Source of the DNA: Thermoanaerobaculia bacterium
GTDB taxonomy: Bacteria; Acidobacteriota; Thermoanaerobaculia; UBA5066
DNA length: 64,000 bases
Reading direction: 5' to 3'
Assembly (NCBI GenBank): GCA_038245905.1
Contig: JBBRRY010000004.1
Coordinates: forward strand, 78,274 to 142,273
Each line of letters starts with the position of its first letter. Within the stretch, counting starts at the first letter, position 1. Made by a program: the position numbers and the translations under genes. The notes under the pieces are model-generated. The model was given only the letters and a program-made list of their open reading frames with translations, searched no databases and had not been told where the DNA came from. Positions 1,446-57,263 of the stretch are shown here, in pieces.

Positions 1446-2267
1446 TCACGTAAGGTTGCTTTTCTTAGAAGGTGAAGAGAGCAGGGCGGCGGCGCTCTCT
1501 TCCTTTCTAAGCAAATTTTCAATTCTTTCGGCGTCCTCGATCGTATCCACGCCGATCGAATCCGACACCGCGTCCAGAACCGCCATCGCCATCCCGGCCG
1601 CGAGCGCGCGGAGCTGCTCGAGGCCCTCCGCCCGTTCGAGGGGATGCGGCGGGAGACTCGTCCACCTTCTCAAGGCTTCTTTCCGATAGCCGTAAAGCCC
1701 GAGGTGCTTGAGTGTCGCGAGGCCCGGCTCGGCCCGCCGGCGATAGGGGAGAGGCGACCTCGAGAAGTACAGGGCGCGCCCGTCGTCTCCGCGCACGACC
1801 TTGACGTTGTTGGGGTTCGCGATCTCGTTCGGGTCACGGATGGGCAGCGCGACAGTCGCGAGCGGAAAGTCGGGATGGTCGAGGAGGAATCCCGCCACCC
1901 GGTCGATGTTCTCGGGATCCATCATCGGCTCGTCGCCCTGCACGTTCAGGACGACGGTCACGTCGAGGTCCTTTACGGCGGCGAAGACCCGGTCGGTTCC
2001 CGAAGGCAGGGCGGGATCGGTCATCACGGCCCTTCCGCCCGCGGACTCGACGACCCGGGCGATCCGCTCGTCGTCCGTCGCGACGAGAACGAGCGAGACG
2101 CGCTTCGCCTTAAGGGCCCTCTCGAGGACTCTCACGACCATCGGAATCCCGGCGATCGGATGGAGAGGTTTTCCTGGAAAGCGCTCCGCCCCGTAGCGGG
2201 AGGGGATGACGGCGACCGAGGAGAGGGGAGTGTTGGTCGCCAGCCGGTGCACGTTCGATAATAACAT
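1446..2267 (-). CDS. kdsB: 3-deoxy-manno-octulosonate cytidylyltransferase
   Basis: IPSRYGAERFPGKPL, SGTDR, NVQGDEP, ALYFSRS, LEQLRAL motifs; start codon uncertain (ATG 2267 chosen). Confidence 0.93.
   Translation of the reverse strand: MLLSNVHRLATNTPLSSVAVIPSRYGAERFPGKPLHPIAGIPMVVRVLERALKAKRVSLVLVATDDERIARVVESAGGRAVMTDPALPSGTDRVFAAVKDLDVTVVLNVQGDEPMMDPENIDRVAGFLLDHPDFPLATVALPIRDPNEIANPNNVKVVRGDDGRALYFSRSPLPYRRRAEPGLATLKHLGLYGYRKEALRRWTSLPPHPLERAEGLEQLRALAAGMAMAVLDAVSDSIGVDTIEDAERIENLLRKEESAAALLSSPSKKSNLT
1460..1516. repeat. inverted pair of the dispersed TTCWAAGMAA motif forming a hairpin
   Basis: TTTCTTAGAAGGTGAAGAGAGC...GCTCTCTTCCTTTCTAAGCAAA; representative of 14 exact motif copies in the window. 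Confidence 0.8.
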
Positions 2268-2400
2268 CGGCGCCCGTCGGCGAGTCAACGACCGCCGGTT
2301 CGCGCCCCGGTGTCCCCCAAAAGGTCGTCGTCACCGGCCCGGACCCGCGGGTCGATGACGACTTCAAGAGGATGGGGAGAGAGGGATTCGGGGGAGCCCG

Positions 2401-2835
2401 CTATCCGGCCACGGGTTGGGCGCGGCTTTGCGTGTCTTCGCTGGATTCGTCTTCGTCCACGAGGCCCGGGAGGGAAAGCGCGGTTGTTTCGAGCGCGCCC
2501 TCCAGCTCGCGGATGCCCTCGCGGGCCGCGACGCAGTAGGAGTTGGACTCGTCGTACCCGGAGGCGGCGACGACCTTCTCGTACGTGAGGAGGGCCTTCG
2601 TCGGTTCCACGAGCGCGAAGTGATACGTGTGCGCCACCGTCATGCGGGCCTGCAGGTCGTAGGGGTTGAGGCGCAGGATCTTCGCGAGAAACACGAGCGC
2701 GTCGTTGTAGCGCTCCTCTTCGAGCGCGACTTCGGCGCGGTGGCGGTAGAGCGCGACCTCTTCCTCGAGAGTGAAGTCCTCACGCGACGTGGCGCTGAAG
2801 GGCGACCGAAAGGACCGGAAAAGCTTTTCGATCAT
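2401..2835 (-). CDS. small TPR-repeat protein
   Basis: TPR-like helices (AEVALEEERYNDALVFLAKILRLNPYD); AGGAG RBS before ATG 2835. Confidence 0.65.
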   Translation of the reverse strand: MIEKLFRSFRSPFSATSREDFTLEEEVALYRHRAEVALEEERYNDALVFLAKILRLNPYDLQARMTVAHTYHFALVEPTKALLTYEKVVAASGYDESNSYCVAAREGIRELEGALETTALSLPGLVDEDESSEDTQSRAQPVAG

Positions 2836-2899
2836 TCGCTCTCCTGACCGTTCCCGAAAGTTGTGGGGGCCGATCCGTGACCCACGATATGTTGGGGAG

Positions 2900-2928
2900 A
2901 GCTTAAGACTGCGGAGCGCTAAAATCAA
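2900..2928 (-). promoter_or_regulatory. sigma70-like promoter for the TPR gene
   Basis: TTGATT-17 nt-TAAGCT on the minus strand, within an AT-rich intergenic region. Confidence 0.45.
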
Positions 2929-3078
2929 GAGAGATTCCAGAAAAAAGAAGGCTGAAAGGCGAATAACCCTTACTTCATTCGGTCATTGCTTCTACAACTT
3001 GACCAACAGCTGGTTTCGTTAGGCAGAACCTTCCCGCAGCCTAATTACATTCAAAGTCACTAAATTATTTATTATTAA

Positions 3079-4152
3079 TTACTTACGACGATTTGCGGCG
3101 TACTCGGCGGCCAGTAGGAAGCCTTCTCGGGACGCTGTCTCGGGGAAGCGCGAGGCGATTTCGCGGGCTCGCTCGGCGTGCGTCTCGACCATTTCGCGGG
3201 CGCGCTCGAGGGCGGAGAGGCGGTGGACGATCTCGAGGATCTGCTCTGGCCTCACGGAGTCGAATCCCTCCTCGGCAACGACCGCCTCCACGAGCTTGCG
3301 CTCGGCGCGCGTGGCGTGCGGCAGACAGAGGATGAGAGGCAGCGTGAGCTTTCCCTCCTTGAGATCCGAGAGGACCGGCTTGCCGAGGTCGACTTCCTTC
3401 GCCGTGTAGTCGAGGACGTCGTCCTGGAGCTGGAAGGCGATCCCGAGGGACATTCCGTACTCCCAGAGCCGGGCGCCCCAGGTCTCGGCCGTCTCGTCGT
3501 ACGCTTCCGACACGAGGAACGACGGGATCTTGCACGCGCCCGCGAACAGAAGGGCTGTCTTGCGGCGGACGATGTCGAGGTAGCCCTCGAGCGTGAGGTC
3601 GAGCAGTCCACGCCTCTCGGCACCGATGATCTCGCCTTCGGTCATGCGGAGCGTCACATCCGAAAGGAGGCGTAGGACGCGCAGATCGCCCTCTTCGAGG
3701 GCGATCTCCATCGATTTCATGTAAAGAAAATCGCCGAAGAGAACGGTCAGCTCGTTGCCCCAGCGGCGATTCACGCTTGGCCGGCCACGGCGCAGCTCGG
3801 CGTCGTCGATGATGTCGTCGTGGACGAGCGTCGCCGTGTGGATGAACTCGATCATCGCGGCGTAGTTCACGTCGCGCTCGCCGTCGTAGCCGAGGAGATG
3901 CGACCCCAGGAGGAGGAGCGCGGGCCGGATTCTCTTGCCCCCGCCCTCGACGAGATAGTCGCCGATGAGCGAGATCGTCGGAATCCCGGAGCGCGTCCGC
4001 TCCTGGAGGCGCGTCTCGACGAGCCGCAGCTTGCCTTCGATCGGCGCGAGAGCCGAAAGCAGACGCCGCCCGTTCTCCCGCTCTTCGGCGGGAAGGGTGG
4101 CGACGAGCAGGCGGTCTTTCAGTGAGGTCTGGAACATTTCGACGGGCTGCAT
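3079..4152 (-). CDS. polyprenyl diphosphate synthase (IspB/HepT family)
   Basis: GGKRIRP, first aspartate-rich motif HDDIIDD..RRG, second motif FQLQDDVLD, DLKEGKLTLP. Confidence 0.92.
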   Translation of the reverse strand: MQPVEMFQTSLKDRLLVATLPAEERENGRRLLSALAPIEGKLRLVETRLQERTRSGIPTISLIGDYLVEGGGKRIRPALLLLGSHLLGYDGERDVNYAAMIEFIHTATLVHDDIIDDAELRRGRPSVNRRWGNELTVLFGDFLYMKSMEIALEEGDLRVLRLLSDVTLRMTEGEIIGAERRGLLDLTLEGYLDIVRRKTALLFAGACKIPSFLVSEAYDETAETWGARLWEYGMSLGIAFQLQDDVLDYTAKEVDLGKPVLSDLKEGKLTLPLILCLPHATRAERKLVEAVVAEEGFDSVRPEQILEIVHRLSALERAREMVETHAERAREIASRFPETASREGFLLAAEYAANRRK

Positions 4153-4203
4153 CTTACAGCCCCCTCCGACCCGGATTACGCCCGTATGGGTGGGCAGGAT
4201 GCT

Positions 4204-4695
4204 CTAGCCCCGGAAGTTCGTGAACTGGAGGGGGATGCCGAAGTCGGCGCCCCGAAGAAGAGCGATGACGGCCTGTAGATCGTCCCTCTTCTTGCCCGAG
4301 ACCCGCAGCTGCTCGCCCTGGATCGCGACCTGCACCTTCAGCTTGCTGTCCTTGATCGCCTTGACGATCTCCCGGGCCTTCTCGGACTCGATGCCCTGGC
4401 GGATCGTGACCACCTGGCGCACGGTACCTTTCGTCGCGGGCTCGATCGTGCCGTAGTCGAGGGACTTCAGGGAGACGCCGCGCTTCACGAGCTTGGTCTG
4501 GAGAATGTCCGTCACGGCCTTCAGGCCGAATTCGTCGTTTGCCGTGAGAGTGAGCTCCTTGTCCTTGTGCTCGATCCCGGCGGCGCTGCTCTTCAGGTCG
4601 TAGCGCTGCGCGGTTTCCTTCTGAGCCTGCGCGACCGCGTTCCCGACTTCGGGAAGGTTGACCTCGGAAACAACGTCGAATGTGGGGTCTGCCAT
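4204..4695 (-). CDS. yajQ: YajQ family cyclic-di-GMP-binding protein
   Basis: PTFDVVSEV...QRYDLK...KVQVAIQGEQLRVSGKKRDDLQ...LQFTNFR is typical YajQ. Confidence 0.93.
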   Translation of the reverse strand: MADPTFDVVSEVNLPEVGNAVAQAQKETAQRYDLKSSAAGIEHKDKELTLTANDEFGLKAVTDILQTKLVKRGVSLKSLDYGTIEPATKGTVRQVVTIRQGIESEKAREIVKAIKDSKLKVQVAIQGEQLRVSGKKRDDLQAVIALLRGADFGIPLQFTNFRG

Positions 4696-4699
4696 GGCT

Positions 4700-5377
4700 T
4701 CACTCCGAGAGGATCTTCGTGCCCGCGGGGGGCGCGAGGGCGAAGTCCGAGTCGGGGCGCTTCGGCCCGGACATCTTCTGCGTAAACGTGAACGCCGTGC
4801 GGTTGCCGGCGGCGTCCACGAGGATGAGCCTCTTCACGTCGCCGGTCGCGGCGACGAGGAGCATGAGCGACTTCGGGTCGCCGCCGGCGCGCGGGGTGAG
4901 CGTGAGCTCGACGAGGCCGGTGTCCGTCGGGGCGGCGCGTGCGGAATAGCGCGCGAGGAGCTCCTCGGTCGACTCGAGGAAAACGAGCGGCAGGCGCGCG
5001 CGCTCTTCAGGCCGGAGGGTCCTGAGGACGAGCTGCCGGTCGGCCGCCACGTACTGGCGGGCAAACTTCCCGTCGAACGTGAAGACCTTTCCCTCAGGGC
5101 CGTCGTAGTCGAACCGCACGCGGTCGGGCGCCTGGAGGATGAGCCGGCCGGTCTCGGGCGCGGTTTCCGCGAAACCCGCGGGCGCGTACGTCTGGACGAA
5201 CGTGCAGTTGACCGAGGGAGAGGATGAGTATGCTTTTCGGATGCTCGCGAGAACGGCGTGCGCGTCGAGGGAGGCGGTCCCAACCGTACCCGGTGTCGCG
5301 GCCGGCTTCGCCGGCCGTGCTTCGAGGGTGAGAAAAACGAGGAGAAGACAGACGAGGGATTTCGCGGGCATATTCAC
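4700..5377 (-). CDS. lolA: outer-membrane lipoprotein carrier LolA family protein
   Basis: Signal peptide, F.Q...G.L....P.R.RFDY, C-terminal F...PP.G pattern. Confidence 0.75.
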   Translation of the reverse strand: MNMPAKSLVCLLLVFLTLEARPAKPAATPGTVGTASLDAHAVLASIRKAYSSSPSVNCTFVQTYAPAGFAETAPETGRLILQAPDRVRFDYDGPEGKVFTFDGKFARQYVAADRQLVLRTLRPEERARLPLVFLESTEELLARYSARAAPTDTGLVELTLTPRAGGDPKSLMLLVAATGDVKRLILVDAAGNRTAFTFTQKMSGPKRPDSDFALAPPAGTKILSE

Positions 5378-5402
5378 CTTCTAAGAAGCTCTTCTCTTTC
5401 TT

Positions 5403-6947
5403 TCAATGCCTGAAGTGTCTCTTCCCCGTGAAGACCATCGTGATGCCCGCGGCGTCCGCCGCGGCGATGACGTCGGGATCCTTGACGGAGCCGCCGGGTT
5501 GGATGACCGCCGTGACGCCCGCGCCCGCGAGAACCTCGAGGCCGTCCGGGAACGGGAAGAATGCGTCGGAAGCCGCCACGGCGCCTCTCGCTCGCTCTCC
5601 GGCTTTCGCAATTGCATCCCGGCAGGCGTCCACACGGCTCGTGCGCCCTCCCCCGATGCCGTACGTCGCGGACTCGCCCGCGACGACGATGCCATTCGAG
5701 ACGACGCCTCGGAGGACGAGGTTCGCGAAGCGCATCGCACGCGTCTCGGCGTCGGTCGGTGCGCGCTTCGTGACGACCTTCCACGCGCTTTCCTCGTCCG
5801 GCAGAAGGTCGCCTTCCTGTACGAGGAGGCCGCCGTCGATGCCGCGCGCCTCGAGGCGCGGGCGCGGCCCGTGCTCCGCCTCGACGGTCAGGACGCGGAG
5901 ATTCGGTTTCTTCGCGAGGACGGGCTTTGCGTCGTCCGTCACGGCGTGGACGACGACGACCTCGAGGAATCGCGACGTGAGCGTGCCGGCGGCCTCCGCA
6001 TCGAGCGTGCCCGTCCAGGCGACGACGCCGCCGAATCCCGCGATCGGGTCGGAGGCCCACGCGGCTTCGAACGCCTCGGCCATCGTGCGGCCCTTCGCGG
6101 CCCCCGCGGGGATTCGGTGCTTCACGATCGTGAGGGCGTTCGCTCCCACGATGCGTGACGTGTAGAGAGCGGCGTCGGCGTCGAGGAAGTTGTTATACGA
6201 GAGCTCCTTCCCCTGCACGAAGCGGTAACGTGAGAGGGCCGGCGCCGCCGCGGCCGCGTCGACATAGAGGGAGGCCTTCTGGTGCGGGTTTTCCCCGTAA
6301 CGGAGACCGGCTCCGAGCGAAAAGGTCAGCGACAGGCGCTCCGGAAACGTCTCGCCCGGCCCCGAGGAGAACCAGCGGGCGATCGCGGCGTCGTACGCCG
6401 CCGTGTGCCGGAAGACCTTCGCGGCGAGGCGGCGGCGCGTCTCGTCCGAGAGGGTCCCACCCGTCCGCAGGAGCTCCTCGGCAATCGCGGGATAGTCGGC
6501 CGGGTCGCACACGACGCCGACGTGCGCATGGTTCTTGGCCGCGGCCCGGAGAAGCGACGGCCCGCCGACGTCGATCTTCTCGATGGCCTCGGCGAAGGTC
6601 ACGCCGGCCCGCGCGACGGTCTCCTCGAACGGGTAGAGGTTCACGACGACGAGGTCGATGGGGGAGACCCCGTTCGCGGCCGCCTCGCCGAGGTCGCGGT
6701 CCAGGGAGCGGTCGAAGAGGATGCCCCCAAAGAGCTTCGGATGCAGCGTCTTCACCCGACCGCCGAACACCTCCGGGAAACCCGTGACGTCGGAAACGCT
6801 CGTGACCGAAAGATCGGACGCGGCGAGTTGCGCCGCCGTCCCTCCCGTCGAGACGAGGCCGAACCCAATCCCGGTCAGAACGTGCGCGAAATCCACGAGG
6901 CCGGTGCGATCCGAGACGGAGAGAAGCGCGATTCGGGTGTTACTCAC
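5403..6947 (-). CDS. purH: bifunctional AICAR transformylase/IMP cyclohydrolase
   Basis: ALLSVSDRTG, STGGTA, GRVKTLHP, LRYGENPHQ, SDAFFPF, QPGGS, RHFRH; GTG start at 6947. Confidence 0.96.
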   Translation of the reverse strand: MSNTRIALLSVSDRTGLVDFAHVLTGIGFGLVSTGGTAAQLAASDLSVTSVSDVTGFPEVFGGRVKTLHPKLFGGILFDRSLDRDLGEAAANGVSPIDLVVVNLYPFEETVARAGVTFAEAIEKIDVGGPSLLRAAAKNHAHVGVVCDPADYPAIAEELLRTGGTLSDETRRRLAAKVFRHTAAYDAAIARWFSSGPGETFPERLSLTFSLGAGLRYGENPHQKASLYVDAAAAAPALSRYRFVQGKELSYNNFLDADAALYTSRIVGANALTIVKHRIPAGAAKGRTMAEAFEAAWASDPIAGFGGVVAWTGTLDAEAAGTLTSRFLEVVVVHAVTDDAKPVLAKKPNLRVLTVEAEHGPRPRLEARGIDGGLLVQEGDLLPDEESAWKVVTKRAPTDAETRAMRFANLVLRGVVSNGIVVAGESATYGIGGGRTSRVDACRDAIAKAGERARGAVAASDAFFPFPDGLEVLAGAGVTAVIQPGGSVKDPDVIAAADAAGITMVFTGKRHFRH

Positions 6948-7542
6948 GGATGGAGAGCGGTCCTTTGGATTCGGGGTGCTGGCGGACGATCGAGGCGTCG
7001 CCTCCCGCGGCGTTCCAGATCCAGGCGAAGAGGCGGGTCGAAAGCGTGACAGTCGCGTCGTAACGCTCACGCGCGGTGGTCGCGGGGAGCGGCGCCGCGG
7101 CCAGGGTTTCGGGCGCGGCGAAGGGTTCCGCCGGATAGCCGAGGAAGCGGGAGGCCTTCGAGGCGTTGCCTGGCGCGCCTCCCTGCGGAGGCAGCGCGAG
7201 GGCGAACTCGTGGACGATCCCGCCCATCTGATAGACGATTTCGTCGAAGGCCGTATGCCGGCGAATGGCCTCGGCGAGCGCACGCGCGCCGCGGGCCGCG
7301 GCCGCGCGATGGGCGTTCGCGTCGCGCGTGCCGTGTTCTGCGGCCGCCGCGTCGCTCACGCCCTGCATGAGCCGGCGGCTGTGCCGCGCGAGCTGACGCT
7401 TGAAGTCCGGGGGCGCGAACGAGGAGGCGTCGGCCGCCATTCGGGCCTCGTCCGCGACGCTCCAGCGCACGAGCTCCGCCGCGCGCGCGCCGGACGCGAA
7501 GAGAACGGCGGCGAGACAGGCGGCGGACGCGTGGCGTTTCAC
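6940..7542 (-). CDS. hypothetical exported helical protein
   Basis: N-terminal signal peptide; overlaps the purH start; no confident family. Confidence 0.6.
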   Translation of the reverse strand: MKRHASAACLAAVLFASGARAAELVRWSVADEARMAADASSFAPPDFKRQLARHSRRLMQGVSDAAAAEHGTRDANAHRAAAARGARALAEAIRRHTAFDEIVYQMGGIVHEFALALPPQGGAPGNASKASRFLGYPAEPFAAPETLAAAPLPATTARERYDATVTLSTRLFAWIWNAAGGDASIVRQHPESKGPLSIRE

Positions 7543-7555
7543 GGTTTCTCCTCTT

Positions 7556-10534: not shown

Positions 10535-11620
10535 TTACTTCCGGAAGGCCTTCGACGGAGCCCTGGGCTCCGGTGCGGGGAGCGCCACGGGAGCCGGTCC
10601 GGCTGGCACGACGACGTCGCCCGTCGGAAGACCGAGGTTCGCCCGGATCTTCTTCTCGATCTCGGCGGCGATGTCGGGGTTGTCGCGGAAGAACTGCTTG
10701 GAGTTTTCGCGGCCCTGCCCAAGGCGGATATCGCCGTAGCTGAACCAGGCGCCGGACTTCTCGACGATCTTCATCTCGATCCCGATGTCGATGAGCTCGC
10801 CCGTCTTCGAGATGCCCTCGCCGTACGCGATGTCGAACTCGGCGAACCGGAAGGGGGGAGCGACCTTGTTCTTGACGATCTTGACCTTCGTGCGGCTTCC
10901 GACGACGACCTCGCCGTCCTTGATGGCATTGATGCGCCGGATGTCGATACGGACCGACGAATAGAACTTCAAGGCCCGGCCGCCCGTCGTCGTCTCTGGG
11001 TTCCCGAACATGACGCCGATCTTTTCGCGGATCTGGTTGATGAAGATGAGGGTCGTGTTCGATTTCGAGACGACCGCCGTGAGTTTGCGCATGGCCTGCG
11101 ACATGAGGCGCGCCTGCAGGCCCACCACGGCGTCGCCCATCTCGCCTTCGAGCTCGGCCTTCGGAACGAGCGCCGCGACGGAGTCGATGACGACGACGTC
11201 GATCGCGGCCGACCGCACGAGCGCCTCGGCGATCTCGAGCGCCTGTTCGCCCGAGTCGGGCTGGGACACCATGAGGTTGTCGACGTCGACGCCGAGCTTC
11301 TTGGCGTAGTCGGGGTCCATCGCGTGCTCGGCGTCGATGAAGGCGGCGAGCCCGCCACGCTTCTGCGCCTCGGCGATGACGTGGAGGGTCAGGGTCGTCT
11401 TGCCCGAAGACTCCGGCCCGAAGACTTCGATGACACGGCCGCGCGGGATGCCGCCGATTCCCAAGGCGGCGTCCACGCCGATCGAGCCCGTCGAGATGCA
11501 CTGGATGACGGTGTGTGGCTTGTCACCGAGACGGACGAGAGCGCCTTTGCCGAACTGCCGGTCGATCTGCTGGAGCGCTTGCTCGAGTGCTTTCTGCTTT
11601 TCCTTGTTCACTTCGACCAT
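10535..11620 (-). CDS. recA: recombinase RecA
   Basis: GPESSGKTT Walker [37 protein letters not shown]. Confidence 0.99.
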
Positions 11621-11842
11621 TTGGTCTCCTTCAAGAAGAGAGGCGGATTATAGGAAGAGAAAGAGGAGGATTTTGATTTGGATTCGGATTTCGGATTCGG
11701 ATTTCTTAGAAGGGTGAATGAGGCTGAGGCGCTCGAAGGACGTCGAGGCGCCACACTCTGCACCGGCGCCACTCGACCTTCTAAGAAAATCTTCTCTGGG
11801 GGCGAAACGGCCTACGATGGCGTCGCCGAGCGGAAGGAACGT

Positions 11843-12388
11843 GTGAAAGTTAGGTCCGATATCTCCGAAACGCAAGGAATTCTTCGCCCGTGGCCCGAGG
11901 TTTTCGCGGCCTCGCGCGTGACGACCCTCGTCGCGACGTGGTTCGGGACCGGGCTCCTTCCGAAGGCTCCGGGCACATGGGGCAGTCTGGCCGCGATCCC
12001 GGCCGCCCATCTCGTCGCGACGATCTGGGGAGTCTCGGGCCTCATCGGCTTCGCGCTCGCGGTCACGTTTGTTGGCGTGCACGCGGCGGGCGAGACGGCG
12101 CGCCTCCGCGGCATCGGCGATCCGCCGGAAGTCGTCGTGGACGAGGTGGCGGGGCAGTCCATCGCGCTTCTGCCGGTCTACGCGCTCGTGCCGCCCGAGG
12201 CCACGCTCTTCCGGATCGGCGCCGTGCTCCTTGCGTTCGCCCTCTTTCGCGTTCTCGACGTCTGGAAGCCCGGCCCAATAGGCGCGCTCGAGCGATTGCC
12301 GCGAGGCTGGGGTGTGATGATGGACGACGTTCTCGGCGGTGCCGTTGCGGGAGCTTGCGTCGGCGCCGCGCTTCTCCTCTGGCGATGA
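11843..12388 (+). CDS. pgpA: phosphatidylglycerophosphatase A
   Basis: G.G..PKAPGTWGS, DPPEVVVDEVAG, FRVLDVWKP, GVMMDDVLGG; start uncertain. Confidence 0.9.
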   Translation: MKVRSDISETQGILRPWPEVFAASRVTTLVATWFGTGLLPKAPGTWGSLAAIPAAHLVATIWGVSGLIGFALAVTFVGVHAAGETARLRGIGDPPEVVVDEVAGQSIALLPVYALVPPEATLFRIGAVLLAFALFRVLDVWKPGPIGALERLPRGWGVMMDDVLGGAVAGACVGAALLLWR

Positions 12389-13272: not shown

Positions 13273-13302
13273 CGTATCGCTCGCGCTTCTGGAGGCCGCC
13301 CC

Positions 13303-14451: not shown

Positions 14452-14510
14452 CCTTTTCGAAAGCCCCGCCTCGCAATCGCCGGAGCCGCGGCGCCCGTAC
14501 AATCTCGGGA

Positions 14511-16561: not shown

Positions 16562-16565
16562 AACC

Positions 16566-39756: not shown

Positions 39757-39757
39757 C

Positions 39758-41780: not shown

Positions 41781-41793
41781 CTCGAGCGTCGCT

Positions 41794-42726: not shown

Positions 42727-42771
42727 CCGGGCGGATCTGATAGAAGTCGGGATCGCGAAAGGAACAGGGAG

Positions 42772-43530: not shown

Positions 43531-43535
43531 AGCGC

Positions 43536-44605: not shown

Positions 44606-44624
44606 CCCGAGTTTTCGCGAACGC

Positions 44625-45896: not shown

Positions 45897-45939
45897 GCAG
45901 CCTCCTGCCGGGGCTTCCCGTCGCGGAGCCCCTGTTAAC

Positions 45940-48021: not shown

Positions 48022-48028
48022 CGTCGTG

Positions 48029-50017: not shown

Positions 50018-50020
50018 CGG

Positions 50021-53000
50021 TCAGTGGAAATCGTGGCTCGGGAGATCCGGAAGAGCCGGGAGCGGCCAGAATCGCTCGGCCCTCACGGAGACGTTTCCGC
50101 CTTCTTTCTGGAGCTTTCCCTCCACGACGAGGCCTCCCGACCCCACGATGAGGGCCCGGTGCTCCTTGAAGAGGTCGGGCCTGACGATGGCTTGCACGAT
50201 GCCGCTCTCGTCCTCGAGCGACAGGAAGACGAAGCCCTTCGCGGTGCCCGGGCGCTGCCGCACGATGACCGCGCCCGCGGCCTTCACGCGTTCGCCTTCG
50301 GGCACGCTCCGGAGCTCCATCGCCGACAGGATCGACCGCGCGGCGAGGGCCGGGCGCAGGTGTTCGAGGAGATGCGGCCCGGCGGTCAGGTCCGTCGCGC
50401 GGTAGTCGGCGATCGTCTCCTCCACGGCGGACATTTCGGGAAGAGGAGATTTCTGCGAAGAGGAAGAAAGAGGAAGATTTTCATAGAGGGTCCCGAGCGG
50501 ACGGGAAACTTCCGCCACCTGCCAGAGGGCGGTGCGGCGGGAGACGTCGAGGGACGTGAGCGCTCCGGAGTAGGCGATCAAAGTCGTCTCGTCCGGGCGG
50601 ATGCGGCATCGCCGCGAAAAGTCAGGAACAGTTTCGAAGAATCCCCTCTTCCGTTCTTCCTCGATGGCTCTCCCCGTCGCTTCTTTCAGGCCCTTCACGA
50701 AGCGCAAACCCAGCCGTATGGCGAGGGGCCCCTCCTCACCTTCTAAGAAATCTTTCTTTTCTTCTCTCTCCAACCCGCATTCCCAGCCAGAAGAATTCAC
50801 GTCGATCGGCAGGACCGGCGTCCCGTGGCGCTGGATGTCTTTCACGATCGTGGCTGGGTGGTAGAAGCCCATCGGCCACGCGTTCAGGAGGCACGCCGTG
50901 AACGCCGCCGGGTGATGCGCCTTCAGCCACGCGCTCGCGTACGCGATGAGCGCGAAGCTGGCCGCGTGCGATTCGGGAAAGCCGTAGAGCGCGAACGACG
51001 TGATGGACTTGACGATCTGATCCTGCGCGGGCCCCGTGATCCCGTTCTTCACCATCCCGGACCTGAGGCGCTCTTCGATCGACCCCATGCGCTCCTGCGA
51101 TCGCTTGAAGCCCATCGCGCGGCGCAGCTCTTCCGCCTCGCCGCCCGTGAAGCCCGCGGCGACCATCGCGATCTTCAGCAGCTGCTCCTGGAACAGCGGG
51201 ACGCCGAGCGTGCGCTTCAGGATCGGCTCGAGGCACGGGTGCGGGTATTCCACGGGCGCCTTGCCCTGCCGCCGGTCGAAGAAGGGATGCACCATGCCGC
51301 CCACGATCGGCCCCGGCCGGATGATGGCCACCTGGACGACGATGTCGTAGAAGATCTTCGGCAGATGGCGGGGTAGAGACGCCATCTGCGCCCGGCTTTC
51401 CACCTGGAAGAGGCCGATCGTGTCCGCGGTCTGGAGCATCGTGTAGACCCGGGCGTCGCCCGCGGGCAGGTGGGCGAGATCCACGTCGACACCCTCGTGT
51501 TCCTTGATCGCGGGCAGCATCTTCTCGATCGCGCCGAGCATTCCGAGGCCGAGAAGATCCACCTTCACGATCCCGAGGTCCGCGCAGTCGTCCTTGTCCC
51601 ACTGGATGACGACGCGCCCTTCCATGGCCGCGGGCTCGAGCGGCACGACCTCGGACAGCTTTCCCATCGCCACGACCATGCCGCCCGAGTGCTGCCCGAG
51701 GTGGCGCGGCAGGTTCTGGACACGCATGAAGAGCTTCCCGAAGTGGGCGACGCGCGGGTGCGCGGGGTCGAAGCCCGCGGCGGCCAGCTCGGCCGCGAGG
51801 TCGGCCGCGCCGTCGCGGTACTCGCCGAAGCTCCACTTCCCGAGGCGCTTGGCGATCGTGTCGACCTGCTCCGCCGAGAAGCCCAGGGCCTTCGCCATTT
51901 CGCGGGACGCCGAGCGGTCGCGATACGTGATGACGTTCGCCGTCATCGCGGCTCCTGCGGGGCCGTACGTCTTGTAGACGTGCTGGATGACCTTCTCGCG
52001 CGGATCGCCAGAGGGAAGGTCGAGGTCGATGTCGGGCCACTCGCCGCGTTCCTCCGAGAGGAAGCGCTCGAAGAGAAGCTCCATCTTGACGGGGTCGATC
52101 GCCGTGATCGAGAGCGCGTAGCAGACGGCGCTGTTCGCGGCCGACCCGCGGCCCTGCACGAGGATGTGCTCCTTCTTGCAGAAGTTCACGATGTCCCAGA
52201 CGATGAGGAAGTAGCCCGCGAGGTCCAGCTTCGCGATGAGGTCGAGCTCGCGCTGGAGCTGCGCCTGCGCCTTGCCCGTGAGCGGCCGGAAGCGGCCCCG
52301 CGCGCCCTCCCACGTGACGCGCCTGAGGAAGGACGACGGCGTCTCGCCCGGAGGCAGCGCGTACGCGGGGAAGCGGTAGCCGAGATCCGCAAGCGTGAAG
52401 GAGAGGCGCCCCGCGAGCGCGGCGCTGGCTTCGAGGACGCCCGGCAGATCCGCGAAGAGGGCTTCCATGTCGCGCGCGGACTTCATGTGGCGCTCGCGCC
52501 CGGCGTGCAGCTTCGTTCCCGCGGCGTCGAGGTGCGTGTGGTGGCGGATGCACGTGAGCGCGTCGAACAGGTCCTTGTCTTTCCGCTCCGCGTAGCGCAC
52601 GCCGTTCGTCGCGAGGACGCCCAGGCGCGCGGCGCCCGCAAGGTCCTGGAGCGCGCGGTTCACATGCTCCTCCTCCCGCAGGAGATGGCGCTGCAGCTCC
52701 ACGTGCACGCGCCCGGGAAACAGCGCGGCGAGGCGGTCCAGCTCGCGCGCGGCCCCGTCGAGCCCGCCGGATGCCAGCGCGCGCGTCACGACGCTCTCCT
52801 CGCCGCCCGTCAGCACGTGGAGCCCCTCCGCGTGCGCGGCGACCTCCTCCCACGTCGCGGCCGCCTGCCCCTTCGGCTTTCCCGCAGCGGCGGCGGTCAG
52901 GAGCAGGCAGAGGTTCCTGTAGCCCTTCTGGTTCTCGACGAGCAGCGTCAGGCGGGGAGGAGAAATTCCTGCTGGGAGGGGAGGGGGAACGAGGCCGCGA

Positions 53001-53446
53001 GGACCAGAGAGATTTTCTTTGAATGATGAAGAGATCGATTTGCCGCTTCTGCCCTCTCCCTCTCTATCTTTCAAAGAAATATTTCTTGATCGATGCATCT
53101 GAAGAACGACTTCCGCCCCGACGAGCGCCTTGACGCCCGCCGCCTTCGCGGACTTCCAGAAGCGCGGGGCGCCGGAGACGCCGTTCGTGTCGATGAGCGC
53201 GACAGCGGGGAGATCGAGCGCCGCCGCGCGATCGACGAGGTCTTCCGGCAGCGACGAGCCGTTCAGGAACGAGAACGCCGAGGCGACGCGCAGCTCGGCG
53301 TAAGCTCGCGCGCGCCGGGCGGGAACCGGCGGGCGTTCGAAGGCGCGCGCGCGCGCCTTCTCCTTGCGCGCGCCGGGCCCGTTGGGATGCAGGCCGCATC
53401 CGCCGTAAGGACCGATGAAGTCGCGGGTGGGAGGCCCTTCCGCCAT
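50021..53446 (-). CDS. dnaE2: error-prone DNA polymerase DnaE2 (ImuC)
   Basis: PHP domain, QGRGSAANS, PDIDLD, PRHLGQHSGG, YGFPESHAASFA, RQRPGTAKG, C-terminal SHDFH (SRDFH-like). Confidence 0.96.
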   Translation of the reverse strand: MAEGPPTRDFIGPYGGCGLHPNGPGARKEKARARAFERPPVPARRARAYAELRVASAFSFLNGSSLPEDLVDRAAALDLPAVALIDTNGVSGAPRFWKSAKAAGVKALVGAEVVLQMHRSRNISLKDREGEGRSGKSISSSFKENLSGPRGLVPPPLPAGISPPRLTLLVENQKGYRNLCLLLTAAAAGKPKGQAAATWEEVAAHAEGLHVLTGGEESVVTRALASGGLDGAARELDRLAALFPGRVHVELQRHLLREEEHVNRALQDLAGAARLGVLATNGVRYAERKDKDLFDALTCIRHHTHLDAAGTKLHAGRERHMKSARDMEALFADLPGVLEASAALAGRLSFTLADLGYRFPAYALPPGETPSSFLRRVTWEGARGRFRPLTGKAQAQLQRELDLIAKLDLAGYFLIVWDIVNFCKKEHILVQGRGSAANSAVCYALSITAIDPVKMELLFERFLSEERGEWPDIDLDLPSGDPREKVIQHVYKTYGPAGAAMTANVITYRDRSASREMAKALGFSAEQVDTIAKRLGKWSFGEYRDGAADLAAELAAAGFDPAHPRVAHFGKLFMRVQNLPRHLGQHSGGMVVAMGKLSEVVPLEPAAMEGRVVIQWDKDDCADLGIVKVDLLGLGMLGAIEKMLPAIKEHEGVDVDLAHLPAGDARVYTMLQTADTIGLFQVESRAQMASLPRHLPKIFYDIVVQVAIIRPGPIVGGMVHPFFDRRQGKAPVEYPHPCLEPILKRTLGVPLFQEQLLKIAMVAAGFTGGEAEELRRAMGFKRSQERMGSIEERLRSGMVKNGITGPAQDQIVKSITSFALYGFPESHAASFALIAYASAWLKAHHPAAFTACLLNAWPMGFYHPATIVKDIQRHGTPVLPIDVNSSGWECGLEREEKKDFLEGEEGPLAIRLGLRFVKGLKEATGRAIEEERKRGFFETVPDFSRRCRIRPDETTLIAYSGALTSLDVSRRTALWQVAEVSRPLGTLYENLPLSSSSQKSPLPEMSAVEETIADYRATDLTAGPHLLEHLRPALAARSILSAMELRSVPEGERVKAAGAVIVRQRPGTAKGFVFLSLEDESGIVQAIVRPDLFKEHRALIVGSGGLVVEGKLQKEGGNVSVRAERFWPLPALPDLPSHDFH

Positions 53447-53455
53447 GGGCCGGCG

Positions 53456-53484
53456 AGCCTAGACGCAAGTGAGACGTAAGTCAA
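53456..53484 (-). promoter_or_regulatory. sigma70-like promoter of dnaE2 with overlapping direct-repeat operator
   Basis: TTGACT-17 nt-TAGGCT; ACTTACG-N4-ACTTGCG at 53464-53481. Confidence 0.75.
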
Positions 53485-53490
53485 CGGTGG

Positions 53491-54114
53491 CTATTTCGAC
53501 GAGGGCGCGCGCTCCAGCGCGGTGAGCCGCAGAGAGAGGTCCGGCGCGGCCCAGAAGCCGAGGCCGCACTCCACGAGGCCCGCGCCGCGGAACTTCCTCC
53601 GGTACCACGCGGCCCGGCGCATCTTGAAGCCCACCGTGTCGCCCTCGATGCCGGTCTCGAGATCGTCGTCGGCCGAGAGGAAATCGAAATACGCGACGCC
53701 GCCGATCAGCTCGGGCAGGCCGTGGAGCCCGAGCAAGACCTCGCGCGTCGGCACGTAATGCAGTGCGTCCGAGCACACGACGAGGTCGAACGGCTCGTCG
53801 AAGCGCAGCTCGGCCAGCTGGCCCCACGAGCCCGGCCGGACGTTGCGCGAGCGGCCGAAGCGCTTGACGGCGTAATCGCTCGTGTCGAGGCCCAGGTAGC
53901 GAAGCTTCGGGCGCAGCTCGCGCAGTAGCGGGAACCACGCCCCTTCGCCGCAGCCCACGTCGAGCACGGACGCGAGCGGCCGCCCGAGGAGATGCTCCGC
54001 GACCCCGACGGCCATCGCAGCTTTCCGAGCGACGCCCGCGCGGCGCACGATGCATTTGCGCGGGTCGCGATACCACTTGCGGAAGTACGCCGCGTCGTAG
54101 AGCTTTCCCTTCAG
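53491..54114 (-). CDS. class I SAM-dependent methyltransferase
   Basis: VLDVGCGEG, LGLDTS, FDLVVC; the frame stays open upstream to YDAAYFRKWY, so the start is CTG 54114 or GTG 54048. Confidence 0.8.
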   Translation of the reverse strand: MKGKLYDAAYFRKWYRDPRKCIVRRAGVARKAAMAVGVAEHLLGRPLASVLDVGCGEGAWFPLLRELRPKLRYLGLDTSDYAVKRFGRSRNVRPGSWGQLAELRFDEPFDLVVCSDALHYVPTREVLLGLHGLPELIGGVAYFDFLSADDDLETGIEGDTVGFKMRRAAWYRRKFRGAGLVECGLGFWAAPDLSLRLTALERAPSSK

Positions 54115-54527
54115 ATGAGGCCGTCCTTCTTCCAGCGCGCGTAGGCCGCCTTCGTGAGCGCGGAAAGCTCCTTGAAGAGTGCGGCATCGGGTTCCTTGAA
54201 GTTGAAGCAGGCCTTCCCCTGCATGCGCTTTTTCAGCGCGGGAGGGACCATCTGGAGCAGGCCGTCGCTCATGTAGATCGGCATGAGGTGGACGCTCACG
54301 TACGCCTTGCCGATCCGCGTACAGACGAACCAGAGGCCCTTCGGAGCCTGCGGGAAGCGCGCGTTCGGCGGCGTGAGGAGGAGGAACTCGTCGGGCCCGT
54401 CCTTCGCCACCGTGAGTCCCTTCTTCTTCGTGAAGGGGTCGAGGACCTTCCGTAGCGCGGCGTGCGTTTCGCGGAACGCGTCCGGAACTCCGGCGGATGC
54501 TCCGGACTTCTTTCTGTCCGTCTTCAT
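54111..54527 (-). CDS. YdhG/DUF1801-like protein
   Basis: GKAYVSVHLMPIY...LKKRMQGKACFNFK pattern. Confidence 0.6.
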   Translation of the reverse strand: MKTDRKKSGASAGVPDAFRETHAALRKVLDPFTKKKGLTVAKDGPDEFLLLTPPNARFPQAPKGLWFVCTRIGKAYVSVHLMPIYMSDGLLQMVPPALKKRMQGKACFNFKEPDAALFKELSALTKAAYARWKKDGLI

Positions 54528-54534
54528 CGGAACC

Positions 54535-54861
54535 TCACGCCTTGACCATCACGAGGATCATCTTGAACGGCGCCGTCGCGCGCAGGCCGTGCGGCACGTT
54601 CGCGGGCAGGAGGAGGATGTCTCCCGCCGAGACTTGGTGGGGCGCGCCCGCGATCTTGACCTCCGCTGTCCCCTCGACCCCGAATACGAGCGCGTCGAAG
54701 GGGGCGGAGTGCTCGCTCAGGGCCTCGCCGGTGTCGAACGCGAATGCCGTCACCGTGCCTCCCGCGGCCTTCACGAGCGTGCGACTCACGACGGCGCCGG
54801 CCTGCAGGGCGACGAGGCCGGTCTGGGGAACGGAATCGGGCGGAAGGGGTTGATGGGCCAT
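54535..54861 (-). CDS. cupin domain protein
   Basis: VSRTL, FAFDTGEALSEHSAP, PANVPHGL; GGAGA RBS before ATG 54861. Confidence 0.85.
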   Translation of the reverse strand: MAHQPLPPDSVPQTGLVALQAGAVVSRTLVKAAGGTVTAFAFDTGEALSEHSAPFDALVFGVEGTAEVKIAGAPHQVSAGDILLLPANVPHGLRATAPFKMILVMVKA

Positions 54862-54911
54862 GGGCTCTCCTTGCGCGCGGACAATAGCGCTGCCGGCGGA
54901 AGGATGTCGGT

Positions 54912-56441
54912 CTAGTCGTAGACGCCGTCCGCGAACCACTCGCCGCCGGGCTCGTCGCGGAAGATGCGATAGAGGCCGCCACCCGAAAGCTCGACGTCCC
55001 AGTACGCGCGGAAGGCGGGCGCCTCCTGCCACCAGCCCTCCTCGAGGCGCCACGGCCCCGAGGCGACGCGCACGGGGCCGGCCACGTCGACGGCCGTCCG
55101 CCCGCCGCCGTCCGTGGGAGGAGTCGAGGCCAGCGCGCGCAGCGACGCGGGGCGCTCGCCTTCGAGAAGAACCTCGAGCGGCACGGCCGGGCGCAGCACC
55201 CGCACCGAAAGCAGCCCCCGCCCAGTCCGCGGAGTCCTGCGGACCGCGGGGGGAGGCGGGGGCGCGAACGGCACGAGGGCGAATCGCTCGGGGCAGTGGC
55301 CGTCCACCGCCTGCGGCGCGCCGGCGCGCCCCGGCCCCAGCAGCGCGAACAGCTTCGCGAGCGCCGTCGCGAGCCGGTCGGGCGAAATCTCGGCCGGCCC
55401 GAACAGCGTGAGCTGGCCCTTGCGCGGCGCGTCGGGATGCGCCGTGAGTGAGAAGCCCGTCACGGCGGCACCGGGCGGCCGGCCCTCGAGGCCGAGGCGC
55501 ACGAGGGTGACGAGCGTCTTCACGTCGCGCGTGGGCGCGGGCAGCTCGATCGTGCGCGTGTCGCAGCCCTCGGGCTCGAGCGTCAGCGACACGTCCAGCC
55601 GCGCGCAGCCGACGGCCTCGGCCTCGAGGCGCCGCGCGAGCCGCTCGAGTGCGCCCTCGGCCAGCGCGAGGAACGGTTCCAGCGTGACGAGCGGCCACTC
55701 CAGCTCCATGCCCTCCGTGAAGCCCGGCGGCGGCCGGCGCGGCACGAGGGGGCGCGGATCGCGCCCGCGCGCAATCTCGTGCAGCGCGTGCCCGCGCGCG
55801 CCGAGCCGGCTCGCGACGTCGGCCGCGGGCAGCTTCGCGAGGTCGCCCACCGACGAGAGCCCCCAGCGCGCGAGCGTCTCGACGATCTCGGCCTCGGGGT
55901 CCAGCTTCACGAGCGGCAGCGGCGCGAGGAACGCGGCCTCGCCGCCGGCGGCGACGACGACGGGGGAGTCCGGCAGCGTCGCGGCCACGCGCGCCGCGAG
56001 CTTGCTCGACGCGAGACCGCAGCGCGCGGGCAACGACTCGCGCTTCGCGGCGGCGATCAGCGCGCGCCCGAGGTCGCGCTCGTCGGGGAAGAGGCGCTCG
56101 AGGCCGTCCGCGTCGAGGTACACGACGCCGTCGCCCGCGTCCTCCACGCGCGGCGACACCGTGCCGGCGACGTCGAGGAGCGCCTCCTGTGCGGCGCGCT
56201 CGCTCTCGAGGTCGCGCGCGCGGGTCAGGAGGTCGGGCAGAAGCGCCCGCGCCTGCGGCAGCGTGAAGCCGGGGCGGATGCCGGCCTTGCGCGCCTTGCG
56301 CGTGGCGGCCACCACGTGCGCGAACGTTCCGTTCCCCTCGCACAGGATGACCGCCTCGTCCCGGAGCGCGGGCTCGCTGCGCAGCCGCGCGGCGAGCGGA
56401 AACAGCGGCACCACGAGACACGCGAGACGGGGAGGGGACAT
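54912..56441 (-). CDS. imuB: ImuB, inactive Y-family polymerase
   Basis: RLACL..P.FPL, GIRPG.TL.QA, SPRVE, beta-clamp-like QLTLF, GPWRLEEGWW...YW...WFADGVYD. Confidence 0.92.
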   Translation of the reverse strand: MSPPRLACLVVPLFPLAARLRSEPALRDEAVILCEGNGTFAHVVAATRKARKAGIRPGFTLPQARALLPDLLTRARDLESERAAQEALLDVAGTVSPRVEDAGDGVVYLDADGLERLFPDERDLGRALIAAAKRESLPARCGLASSKLAARVAATLPDSPVVVAAGGEAAFLAPLPLVKLDPEAEIVETLARWGLSSVGDLAKLPAADVASRLGARGHALHEIARGRDPRPLVPRRPPPGFTEGMELEWPLVTLEPFLALAEGALERLARRLEAEAVGCARLDVSLTLEPEGCDTRTIELPAPTRDVKTLVTLVRLGLEGRPPGAAVTGFSLTAHPDAPRKGQLTLFGPAEISPDRLATALAKLFALLGPGRAGAPQAVDGHCPERFALVPFAPPPPPAVRRTPRTGRGLLSVRVLRPAVPLEVLLEGERPASLRALASTPPTDGGGRTAVDVAGPVRVASGPWRLEEGWWQEAPAFRAYWDVELSGGGLYRIFRDEPGGEWFADGVYD

Positions 56442-57263
56442 TCAGCGCCCGTATGCGGACAGATAGCCAGAAAACGCAGCGGCGTTTTCTTTCTTCCCCT
56501 CTTCCTTTCTAAGCAAATCTTTCTTTCTTTCTTCTTCTTTTCCTTTCTTCCCCGCCTGAAGCGCATCCAGCAGCGAAAGATTCAGCAGGCTGGCCTTTCC
56601 TTCCAGATGCATTTCGCGCCTCTCGAGGTTTTTCTCCACCACGAGGTGGGAAGACAGGCCGTCGAGCAGGCTGCGGTCCCAGCCTGCCCGCGCGGCATCC
56701 GCCGCGAGGACGATGCGCGCCGCGGTGCCCGTGACGCGATAGGGCGCGAGGACGAACAGCGCGGTGTCGTGGACGCGCGCGCGGCGCGCGAGGCGCAGCC
56801 ACACGGCGTCGTCGAAGCGCCGGCGCGAGACGCGTGCGAGCCCGAGGTCGAGGATGACGAGGGCGAAGCCTGTGGCGAGCACCGTCTCCGTGGCCGCCAG
56901 CGCCATCTTCACTCCGTTGGGGCGCAGCCACAGCACGCGCGAAAGCTCGGCGCCCGCGGCAGCCGCGCCCTGGGGGTCGAAGTGGTCGCCGGGATCGACG
57001 AGAGCGGCGGTCTCGCCCGTCTGCGTCGTGGCCGCAAGCGCGGAGAGCGCGATCGAGAAGCGGCCGGAGGACGCGCGCCCGGACATCTCCACCAGCGCCC
57101 CGCGCGGCAGCCCGCCCCCGAGGAGGCGGTCCAGCCCCTCGCACCCCGTCGGCAGACAGGCCGGCGCGAACCGCCCGCGCGAGAGTGAAAGCGAAAGCCC
57201 CGCGGCAGTGGTCATCTGCGCGGCGATGTCCGGAGGAAGAACGGGACGAGGCAGCGCCGGCAC
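56442..57263 (-). CDS. imuA: ImuA/ImuA'-like RecA-fold protein
   Basis: LPTG..LDRLLGGGLPRGALVE with a degenerate Walker A (GRASSGRF); directly upstream of imuB. Confidence 0.85.
   Translation of the reverse strand: MPALPRPVLPPDIAAQMTTAAGLSLSLSRGRFAPACLPTGCEGLDRLLGGGLPRGALVEMSGRASSGRFSIALSALAATTQTGETAALVDPGDHFDPQGAAAAGAELSRVLWLRPNGVKMALAATETVLATGFALVILDLGLARVSRRRFDDAVWLRLARRARVHDTALFVLAPYRVTGTAARIVLAADAARAGWDRSLLDGLSSHLVVEKNLERREMHLEGKASLLNLSLLDALQAGKKGKEEERKKDLLRKEEGKKENAAAFSGYLSAYGR

Follow-up and report, generated by a model that had tools for sequence, protein, structure and literature searches.

Oriented arms of 30 to 35 bp recur within and between genes in one lineage of Thermoanaerobaculia

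A 64,000-nucleotide (nt) stretch of a Thermoanaerobaculia genome (contig JBBRRY010000004.1 of assembly GCA_038245905.1; G000:C4:78274-142273; here called the window) holds 14 exact copies of the 10-mer TTCWAAGMAA, the core of an element of about 30 to 35 bp that we call an arm. Across the source genome (G000; 3.80 Mb, 113 contigs, 67.8% GC, 96.4% complete) arms recur by the hundred, mostly as inverted doublets of a single order. Inside genes they are translated, at some loci they have been built by point substitution on native codons, and several are conserved across a genus. At about an even chance, we read the element as a lineage-specific recognition signal that would be read arm by arm by a trans-acting factor and kept by selection or by molecular drive.

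Throughout, "genus" means the genus of G000, a group of sediment and soil Acidobacteria; G-numbers are genomes compared and L-numbers are loci compared. Exact cores were located by sequence search, and whole arms with a position-weight matrix (PWM), a noisy scan in which reversed-sequence controls also score; at orthologous loci a PWM score of at least 16 counted as presence. A pair is a minus-strand core followed by a plus-strand core. The outgroup set includes two unpublished genomes (G019 and G024); the tallies keep the same character without both, the remaining outgroups holding 0 to 5 exact copies.

Abundance, anatomy and pairing of the arms

The 14 window copies compare with a mean of 0.08 and a maximum of 1 in 100 dinucleotide-preserving shuffles of the window. 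A sequence-only reading of the window had listed all 14, each at the position and on the strand where the search now finds it, had noted five minus-then-plus doublets among them, which hold (spacings, 44 to 239 bp), and had supposed a genome-wide signal. The signal is genome-wide: G000 carries 230 exact copies (116 plus, 114 minus), split into TTCTAAGAAA (109 copies), TTCAAAGAAA (86), TTCTAAGCAA (32), and TTCAAAGCAA (3). No 10-mer of the genome is more over-represented than these first two, and the variant TTCGAAGAAA gives 82 more copies. On average, exact cores are 16.5 kb apart and arm sites roughly 8 kb apart. Placement along contigs is near random, with inter-site gaps close to exponential (coefficient of variation [CV], 1.18), and the clumping seen in 20-kb bins (index of dispersion, 2.6) is largely accounted for by pairing. 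Arms do not break the assembly: in just 1 of the 113 contigs does an arm lie no more than 300 bp from the end.

A logo of 323 aligned exact copies in G000 (G variant included) is conserved only from about −12 to +30 around the core and fades out without sharp termini. It runs from a pyrimidine run through a near-invariant C at −2, the core TTC[T/A/G]AAG[A/c]AA, and an A or T to a further pyrimidine run. As a consensus, a pyrimidine run ending in CACC precedes TTCTAAGAAA, ATCT, and a further pyrimidine run; the listed pairs give a fuller version, in which the inner flank ends CTCTTCACC and the outer flank begins ATCTTCTC. When the window arm at 37312 was searched with BLAST against other genus genomes, matches of 30 to 35 nt at 89 to 100% identity appeared at many other places. 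Taken with the narrow logo, this defines the unit as an asymmetric arm of 30 to 35 bp rather than a long repeat. Palindromy in the arm is confined to the core, a 9-nt near-palindrome whose variable base breaks the symmetry; the arm holds no stem. Asymmetry and use in oriented doublets speak against the earlier suggestion of a palindromic site like those of matS, SlmA, or Noc. The core was also considered as a target-site duplication and rejected, as paired cores face each other instead of repeating directly and the palindrome is interrupted by the variable base.

Order within pairs is strict. Neighboring exact cores of G000 no more than 300 bp apart fall into 64 minus-plus, 0 plus-minus, 7 plus-plus, and 8 minus-minus combinations; by PWM, 175 minus-then-plus pairs within 400 bp stand against 14 in the opposite order, and of 430 strong arms, 326 are accompanied by a partner in the expected position. 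Read 5' to 3' on either strand, a pair presents its purine-rich copy first and its pyrimidine-rich copy second. The core-to-core distance has a median of 115 bp (5 to 95% limits, 51 to 272 bp). A check of pair spacings, which the sequence-only reading had proposed, gave no periodicity at 10 to 11 bp (P = 0.07 to 0.73) or at 3 bp (P = 0.29), so neither helical nor codon phasing is seen; a 9-bp signal is nominal (P = 0.01, uncorrected among 14 periods tried).

What lies between paired arms is arbitrary. The spacers of 66 exact pairs are mutually unrelated, save one extended match (84 nt at 87% identity) between two paralogous protein-kinase genes, and a second genomic match was found for only 5 of the 66. 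In manC, the 229-nt spacer is native conserved coding sequence for the RFVEKP...WNAGIF segment, and the kinase-gene pair likewise encloses a native kinase coding segment. Relative to random genomic pieces of the same length, spacers fold with a mean z of −0.26, and 8 of 60 fall below −2. With spacers unrelated, partly native, and no better folded than other DNA, the family is not a miniature inverted-repeat transposable element (MITE) with an interior of its own.

The two arms of a pair do not track each other. Over 175 pairs and 44 positions, arm-to-arm agreement nowhere exceeded |z| of 2.4, and the variable core position 4 differs between arms in 102 of 175 pairs. Arms are thus not selected to pair with each other, which argues against an RNA stem, a cruciform, recent fold-back copying, and crossover at identical cores; each arm appears to be read on its own.

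By our own rough codon-score gene caller, 236 of the 323 exact cores lie in open reading frames (ORFs), in all six frames and evenly spread along genes; genic and intergenic shares are approximate because of this caller. These arms are translated, and their sequence bends to the frame. In the two frames in which T, the canonical base of core position 4, would make TAA or TAG, 0 of 55 and 0 of 39 arms have it; where the A variant would give TGA, it is found in 0 of 33, T being used in 31 of those 33. Intergenic arms have T at this position in 56 of 87 cases. Arms are no scarcer in the stop-prone frames (55 and 39) than in the others (23 to 48), which is evidence against the idea that most genic arms came in as finished canonical copies. 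Arms are moreover spelled in codons that are rare in G000 (third-position GC, 0.88), namely AAA (12%), GAA (21%), TTT (11.5%), CTT (9%), TTG (2% of Leu), AGA (2% of Arg), and TCT (5% of Ser). A constraint on the nucleic acid and not on the protein is supported because all six frames are used, stops are avoided frame by frame, rare codons are kept, and an intergenic arm (at 11779, below) is conserved amid diverging flanks. Both the rarity of the codons and the direction of the constraint had been proposed from the window, and both hold.

Distribution and origin of the arms

Across the assemblies searched, the core is limited to one genus and one neighboring genome, G054. Exact cores number 126 to 349 in 19 of 19 genus genomes and 0 to 8 in 12 genomes from seven other genera of the order. 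When the core is loosened to TTCNNAGAAATC, counts are 80 to 253 in 16 of 16 genus genomes (control patterns, 0 to 2) and 0 to 13 in 45 genomes of 14 other genera, except G054 with 33. In this sample the core is thus not class-wide, although dialects of their own may exist in other lineages. With a longer pattern, G054 has 36 copies, pairs included, and its congener G039 has 2 (an 18-fold difference). Arms of G054 stand at places orthologous to genus arms (manC, dnaE2, and an HNH locus), and the site near the N terminus of dnaE2 (N-site) in G039 keeps decayed versions of both arms. For these two reasons the system is older than the genus, and it seems to be decaying in the neighboring lineage. 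G054 and G039 share one GTDB genus (g10) and form a natural pair for tracing a reader by gene presence and absence.

The orthologous alignments indicate that arms arise both by insertion and by substitution, the two routes between which the sequence-only reading had asked for a choice. Substitution is seen in manC, whose product is a ManC-type nucleotidyl transferase. Its plus-strand arm (15252 to 15287, exact core at 15264) lies on native ManC codons (FxEIFSSSPSxSID), and outgroups show no length change at the site; the series G038, G039, G054, G000 approaches the consensus stepwise, with no length change and with amino-acid changes alongside. The minus-strand partner (15011 to 15046, exact core at 15025) sits in an insertion-prone, variable loop that is short in outgroups. 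There, comparison of G054 with G039 shows five substitutions within 9 nt that create the core in G054. Each manC arm is present in 14 of 16 genus loci. The loop carries two to three tandem copies of the purine-rich arm in some loci and none in two; at L113, L118, L119, L130, and L131 (orthologous to window positions 14990 to 15075), the tandem copies are about 33 to 36 nt long and encode Glu/Lys-rich repeats. Arms can therefore also expand locally by tandem duplication.

Insertion is seen in dnaE2. At its C-site, 15 of 15 genus sequences have 8 to about 100 extra residues, within which lies one arm (purine-rich or pyrimidine-rich) or the two together around a spacer that varies; 9 of 11 outgroup sequences have nothing there, and 2 of 11 have a three-residue difference without an arm. 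In the window this insertion, in the HhH region, contains a plus-strand arm at 50729 to 50764 (exact core at 50741; PWM, 44.5), read as DFLEGEE. Two overlapping near-copies on the minus strand (50436 to 50500, cores at 50450 and 50479; PWM, 26.7 and 21.0) are likely its partners. At the N-site, within the PHP domain, a minus-strand arm (53000 to 53035, exact core at 53014) is paired with a plus-strand arm (53058 to 53093, exact core at 53070). Here 2 of 13 genus sequences are empty and some have nested extra arms, none of the 10 outgroup loci scored reaches a PWM of 16, and no target-site duplication was seen at the filled and empty sites examined. Both arm sites belong to a complete imuA-imuB-dnaE2 mutagenesis cassette (50021 to 57263, minus strand) encoding a RecA-like ImuA, an IMS-family ImuB, and DnaE2. 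Four of the cassette's five strong arms are in dnaE2, together with a weaker, overlapping near-copy, and the fifth is in the imuA tail. The imuA arm is single (56495 to 56530, plus strand, exact core at 56507; PWM, 43.5) and lies at residues 250 to 253 of the ORF, in the C-terminal tail, the RecA-like domain ending at residue 135; a terminator scan found no terminator-like site at this arm.

At the end of kdsB, a minus-strand arm (1447 to 1482, core 1461 to 1470; PWM, 30.9) in the C-terminal tail of the KdsB-type ORF, past the Pfam domain, pairs with a plus-strand arm (1493 to 1528, core 1505 to 1514; PWM, 35.7) across a 34-nt spacer that is a GC-rich hairpin. The terminator scan gave one terminator-like match at this site against 0.6 expected in shuffles, which is chance level. 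The pair is missing from 4 of 10 orthologous genus loci. A second repeat, of about 130 nt with two GC-rich hairpins, lies between or beside arms at the kdsB end of G012 (L132) and at the dnaE2 C-sites of G008 and G006 (L013 and L011) and G039 (L240). Similar sequence is met with at unrelated loci and in different genera; no copy was recognized in the window.

In the glycosyltransferase region, the minus-strand arm at the junction of two GT4 genes (36757 to 36792, exact core at 36771) is present in about half of the genus loci. Its plus-strand partner (36855 to 36890, exact core at 36867) lies on native, conserved C-terminal GT4 sequence (DEERRDLLRKRGR), and the arm or a version with one to two mismatches occurs in all 23 genus loci listed. 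Farther on, a single plus-strand arm in the linker between two GT4 domains (37300 to 37335, exact core at 37312) is the surviving half of a pair, the partner arm and a 60- to 130-nt spacer remaining in about 18 of 24 other genus loci.

The intergenic pair consists of a minus-strand arm upstream of recA (11688 to 11723, exact core at 11702), present in 4 of 10 orthologous loci, and a plus-strand arm upstream of pgpA (11767 to 11802, exact core at 11779). The latter reaches the PWM cut-off in 9 of 10 orthologous loci and is degenerate in the tenth, with flanks and partner arm varying. Two elements near the start of recA (11620 to 11700) are conserved throughout the genus, a sigma-70-type −10 box (TATAAT, minus strand) and a ribosome-binding site, AAGGAGA. 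A promoter function of the arms was considered and rejected, as recA has this conserved TATAAT of its own and the distance from the arm to the candidate pgpA −10 box varies between species.

A single plus-strand arm at 10054 to 10089 (exact core at 10066), lacking the outer pyrimidine tract, lies antisense in a 992-amino-acid (aa) ORF (7556 to 10534, minus strand) that has a good coding score and no Pfam family at E values up to 1e-4. A core version stands at the same place in 13 of 13 genus loci, and third codon positions in the arm are conserved at 0.87 versus 0.69 elsewhere, a level reached by 0 of 200 control windows. A further window arm is a single near-copy with core TTCTAAGAAG (5367 to 5402, plus strand; PWM, 31.9).

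Twelve of the 14 exact window copies lie in open frames, as first described, and the peptides LLRK, FKEIFS, FKENLS, DFLEG, and DFFER can be read from those ORFs. Four of the twelve (1461, 1505, 36771, and 56507) are in C-terminal tails or at a gene junction, outside Pfam domains. Pfam bears out the gene names kdsB, manC, GT4, dnaE2, and imuA (KdsB-type cytidylyltransferase, ManC-type nucleotidyl transferase, GT4, DnaE2, and RecA-like ImuA); the "barrel" gene, which is the 992-aa ORF, had no Pfam match. The near-copies proposed at 5379, 50450, and 50479 recur in the PWM scan, and one proposed at 50633 was not flagged. Seen on the proteins, then, arms occupy the C-terminal tails of KdsB, ImuA, and a GT4 enzyme, a linker between GT4 domains, insertions in the PHP and HhH regions of DnaE2, and a variable loop of ManC. 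Scanning the window against Rfam and for tRNA genes gave no matches.

Readings of the element

On the reading we favor, each arm would be a recognition site read alone by a lineage-specific trans-acting factor, most likely a protein acting on duplex or single-stranded DNA rather than on RNA. The family would not be copied as a unit; arms would be created in place and kept up either by selection or by a molecular drive like that which builds DNA uptake signal sequences. They would appear where the host tolerates them, namely in intergenic DNA, at gene ends, in surface loops, and on rewritable codons, and would work, or be generated, as oriented doublets 50 to 270 bp apart with no fixed geometry.

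A reader or mover was sought by protein family in G000. There were no matches to the Y1/RAYT transposase family (PF01797; the control search was positive in 6 of 14 named genomes), no serine recombinase genes, and no TnpB-type domain; the one GIY-YIG match (PF01541) lies within a 614-aa ORF and no small single-domain gene was found. Four tyrosine recombinase genes and a ComEC gene are present. ParB_N proteins were rejected as a lineage-specific reader, with two genes in most genus and outgroup genomes alike. Sixteen genes of G000 have arms on both sides, and Pfam was run on 10. An autonomous element between distant minus-plus arms was rejected, the genes there being glnA, gcvT, a GT2 gene, an S9 peptidase gene, and a gene for a membrane protein without a Pfam match, with no transposase among them.

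One of the genes with arms on both sides, for a conserved HNH_5 endonuclease (195 aa; G000:C28:4641-8225, L210; orthologues L211 to L221 and L223), lies within a cluster of four to six arms at 12 of 12 genus loci, with arm positions fixed at about −770, −630, −280, and +690 from the gene start. The G054 locus has arms at the same two upstream positions, and the outgroup loci examined (11 of 15) are without such repeats. As a specific lead the gene was rejected, since none of the 61 genomes of the order lacks it and clusters of this density number 30; its link with the arms is probably fortuitous.

A search of a paper library found no description of the motif, in keeping with its first characterization as undescribed; core-word matches listed were all from eukaryotic or primer contexts, and for Thermoanaerobaculia with palindromic repeats only ecology work was found.

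Several observations weigh against a recognition signal kept by selection or drive. No reader gene was identified among the families searched. Uptake signal sequences (USS) and DNA uptake sequences (DUS) occur at about one per kb, and arm density is roughly ten times below that value. We know of no uptake signal that needs a partner at 50 to 270 bp, and to our knowledge no drive model explains a strict orientation rule. The pyrimidine-rich arm of manC shows no excess of third-position conservation (0.73 versus 0.72, a level attained by 131 of 276 control windows). When compared with outgroups or other genus members, many copies are insertions (both dnaE2 sites, the kdsB end, and the GT4 linker), and such copies would fit an ancient mobile phase. 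Single arms in genes favor the pyrimidine-rich form in mRNA by 36 to 16, which could suggest an effect at the RNA level. Genic and intergenic shares, resting on rough gene calls, carry their own uncertainty.

The main rival, which we consider unlikely, is an ancient and now immobile family of palindromic insertions resembling MITEs or Rickettsia palindromic elements (RPEs), in which arm-spacer-arm units entered genes in frame, spacers have since diverged, and many copies are left with one arm. The dnaE2 C-site, inserted in 15 of 15 genus sequences and armless in 11 outgroup sequences, fits it, as do filled and empty sites within the genus (dnaE2 N-site, kdsB end, and upstream of recA), the arm at 37312 as remnant of a pair, and the translation of arms in frame, at loops, tails, and the borders of domains; a review (PMC10969869) describes RPEs as inserted in frame into many genes. 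The same idea, remnants of a palindromic mobile element, had come from the sequence-only reading, and against it stand the spacers, which have no similarity to each other, the logo without sharp termini, the lack of a target-site duplication at the sites examined, and the lack of a candidate transposase among the families searched. Arms also arise by substitution on native codons, pairs enclose native coding sequence, arms are conserved amid diverging spacers and flanks, stop-prone frames are undepleted, and a single contig in 113 ends near an arm.

An explanation at the level of RNA or single-strand structure would have the arms pair into a stem (an RNase III target, a means of sequestering a sequence that resembles a ribosome-binding site, or a cruciform) or would make of them, with a hairpin in the spacer, a bidirectional terminator that has an A-rich and a U-rich side. 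Paired arms are complementary by consensus, and RNA copied from either strand carries the purine-rich, A-rich arm on its 5' side and the pyrimidine-rich, U-rich arm on its 3' side; folding is unusually strong (z below −2) in 8 of 60 spacers; a hairpin stands between 1461 and 1505; purine-rich arms peak 25 to 50 nt past stop codons (37 in the bin versus about 5 in flanking bins); and there is the 36-to-16 bias of single genic arms. A subset of arms after stop codons may act as terminators. For the family as a whole we give this account a low probability: covariation between arms is absent at all 44 positions in 175 pairs, spacers fold no better than average (mean z, −0.26), single arms are conserved without partners, most exact cores (236 of 323) are in ORFs, including the middle of dnaE2 and of manC, and the terminator scan gave only a chance-level match at one site and none at the other. 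A similarly doubtful proposal treats arms as oriented sites for a DNA-tracking or chromosome-organizing machine, each arm being a polar barrier or loading site and a doublet acting both ways. Strict orientation with flexible, helix-unphased spacing fits tracking better than rigid looping, arms appear to be read independently, and strand counts are equal (116 and 114); against this, the near-exponential gaps (CV, 1.18) mean that there is no regular domain size, and no lineage-specific ParB-like protein was found, the two ParB_N genes being shared with outgroups. Least probable are intragenic invertons, by which one master recombinase, inverting the segment between paired arms, would recode many genes or turn them off. 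Such invertons are a described phenomenon (bioRxiv 10.1101/2023.03.11.532203), and G000 offers inverted repeats with a genome-wide consensus flanking 30 to 350 bp in genes, a core that is a 9-nt near-palindrome, and four tyrosine recombinase genes. Many spacers nonetheless encode conserved segments of essential proteins, 102 of 175 pairs would have a mismatch in the crossover region at core position 4, no serine invertase gene was found in G000, and dnaE2 N-site spacers compared by eye are in no case inverted between species. Assembled contigs of the probable source run cross the arm at 10066 and both the 11702/11779 and the 15025/15264 pair without alteration, and among the contig joints listed not one is an inversion at an arm, a weak test, as contigs drop minor variants. 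A contig joint from 1482 to 15262, found in two runs, was discarded as an arm-to-arm alignment artifact.

A bolder reading, less likely than not, is put forward tentatively: a genus-wide code of oriented doublets, in which two facing arms would be imposed on arbitrary DNA, codons of essential genes included, by a machine that needs or generates two inverse sites no more than a few hundred base pairs apart. Such a machine might handle DNA (in uptake, recombination, repair, or chromosome organization) or be guided by nucleic acid, and the code would be a self-marking or DNA-handling signal without a described counterpart. If a dedicated reader exists, bacteria of this lineage would label and process their DNA in a manner that is new, with a mark strong enough to rewrite codons of essential genes such as dnaE2, manC, and glycosyltransferase genes and to hold rare codons over the history of a genus; a reader specific for 30 to 35 bp of DNA, duplex or single-stranded, would also interest biotechnology. 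The system offers a clean natural test of selection against molecular drive because full carriers, a low-density carrier (G054), and a relative with decayed copies (G039) are all included. In practice, arms mislead gene callers and alignment tools and put low-complexity peptides into conserved proteins.

Comparison with known systems

The element lies outside every known family tested. Intrinsic terminators, including sequence-conserved ones such as TRIT, differ in having a stable hairpin and then a U tract at gene 3' ends, whereas here spacers have a mean folding z of −0.26 and most arms are inside ORFs. Intragenic invertons, as described in bioRxiv 10.1101/2023.03.11.532203, share inverted repeats that flank tens to hundreds of base pairs in coding genes; they differ in that no inversion was seen here in contigs (weak data), cores often differ within a pair, and spacers contain conserved essential segments.

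In the Ssn system, as described by Chenal et al. 2025 (PMC11893778), SRM hairpins flank the gene of a GIY-YIG protein of about 94 aa, and this protein cuts them in single-stranded form. An asymmetric repeat of about 30 bp (NTS/SRM) in hundreds of copies, clustering around genes, a dedicated small reader protein, and a link to transformation (PMC11893778) make it a parallel to what is proposed for the arms. Unlike that system, G000 has its only GIY-YIG match in a 614-aa ORF, and the arm is without a stem.

REPINs resemble the arms in their hundreds of short repeats, mostly as inverted doublets of one orientation with singletons as decay products, and in being vertically inherited and long-lived, going by the accounts in PMC3116915 and PMC3337134. 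REPINs come with a single-copy RAYT gene that the repeats flank, and none was found here; each REP repeat is an imperfect palindrome, and arms are not hairpins themselves; and whereas REPINs are extragenic, 236 of 323 exact cores are in ORFs and spacers lie outside any replicating unit.

Like RPEs and intragenic MITEs, as reviewed in PMC10969869, the pairs are palindromic overall, translated in frame in many unrelated housekeeping genes at residue-tolerant places, and limited to one lineage. An RPE is a complete unit of about 150 bp that has a conserved sequence and encodes a peptide, whereas only the 30- to 35-bp arms are conserved here, flanking native coding DNA and able to arise by substitution. 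Whole units with defined ends and a duplication are not what we see (one related spacer pair among 66), and the copies are of both kinds, insertions at dnaE2, the kdsB end, and the GT4 linker, and substitutions at manC and on native GT4 sequence at 36867.

Unlike USS and DUS, three quarters of the arms stand in oriented doublets 50 to 270 bp apart around arbitrary DNA, and the arm is AT-rich and purine/pyrimidine-asymmetric in a 68% GC genome. The likenesses are broad: as described for the USS of Pasteurellaceae and the DUS of Neisseriaceae (PMC2817400, PMC3630211), a short lineage-specific core with a conserved flank occurs in hundreds of copies equally on both strands, preferentially between genes and sometimes as inverted pairs. 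Uptake sequences gather in coding regions at poorly conserved positions, according to Findlay and Redfield 2009 (PMC2817400), and arms too are written into coding DNA by substitution, at poorly conserved positions and in all frames. Lineage dialects are a further shared trait. A drive like that which shapes uptake signals remains, by analogy, the closest parallel for the arms.

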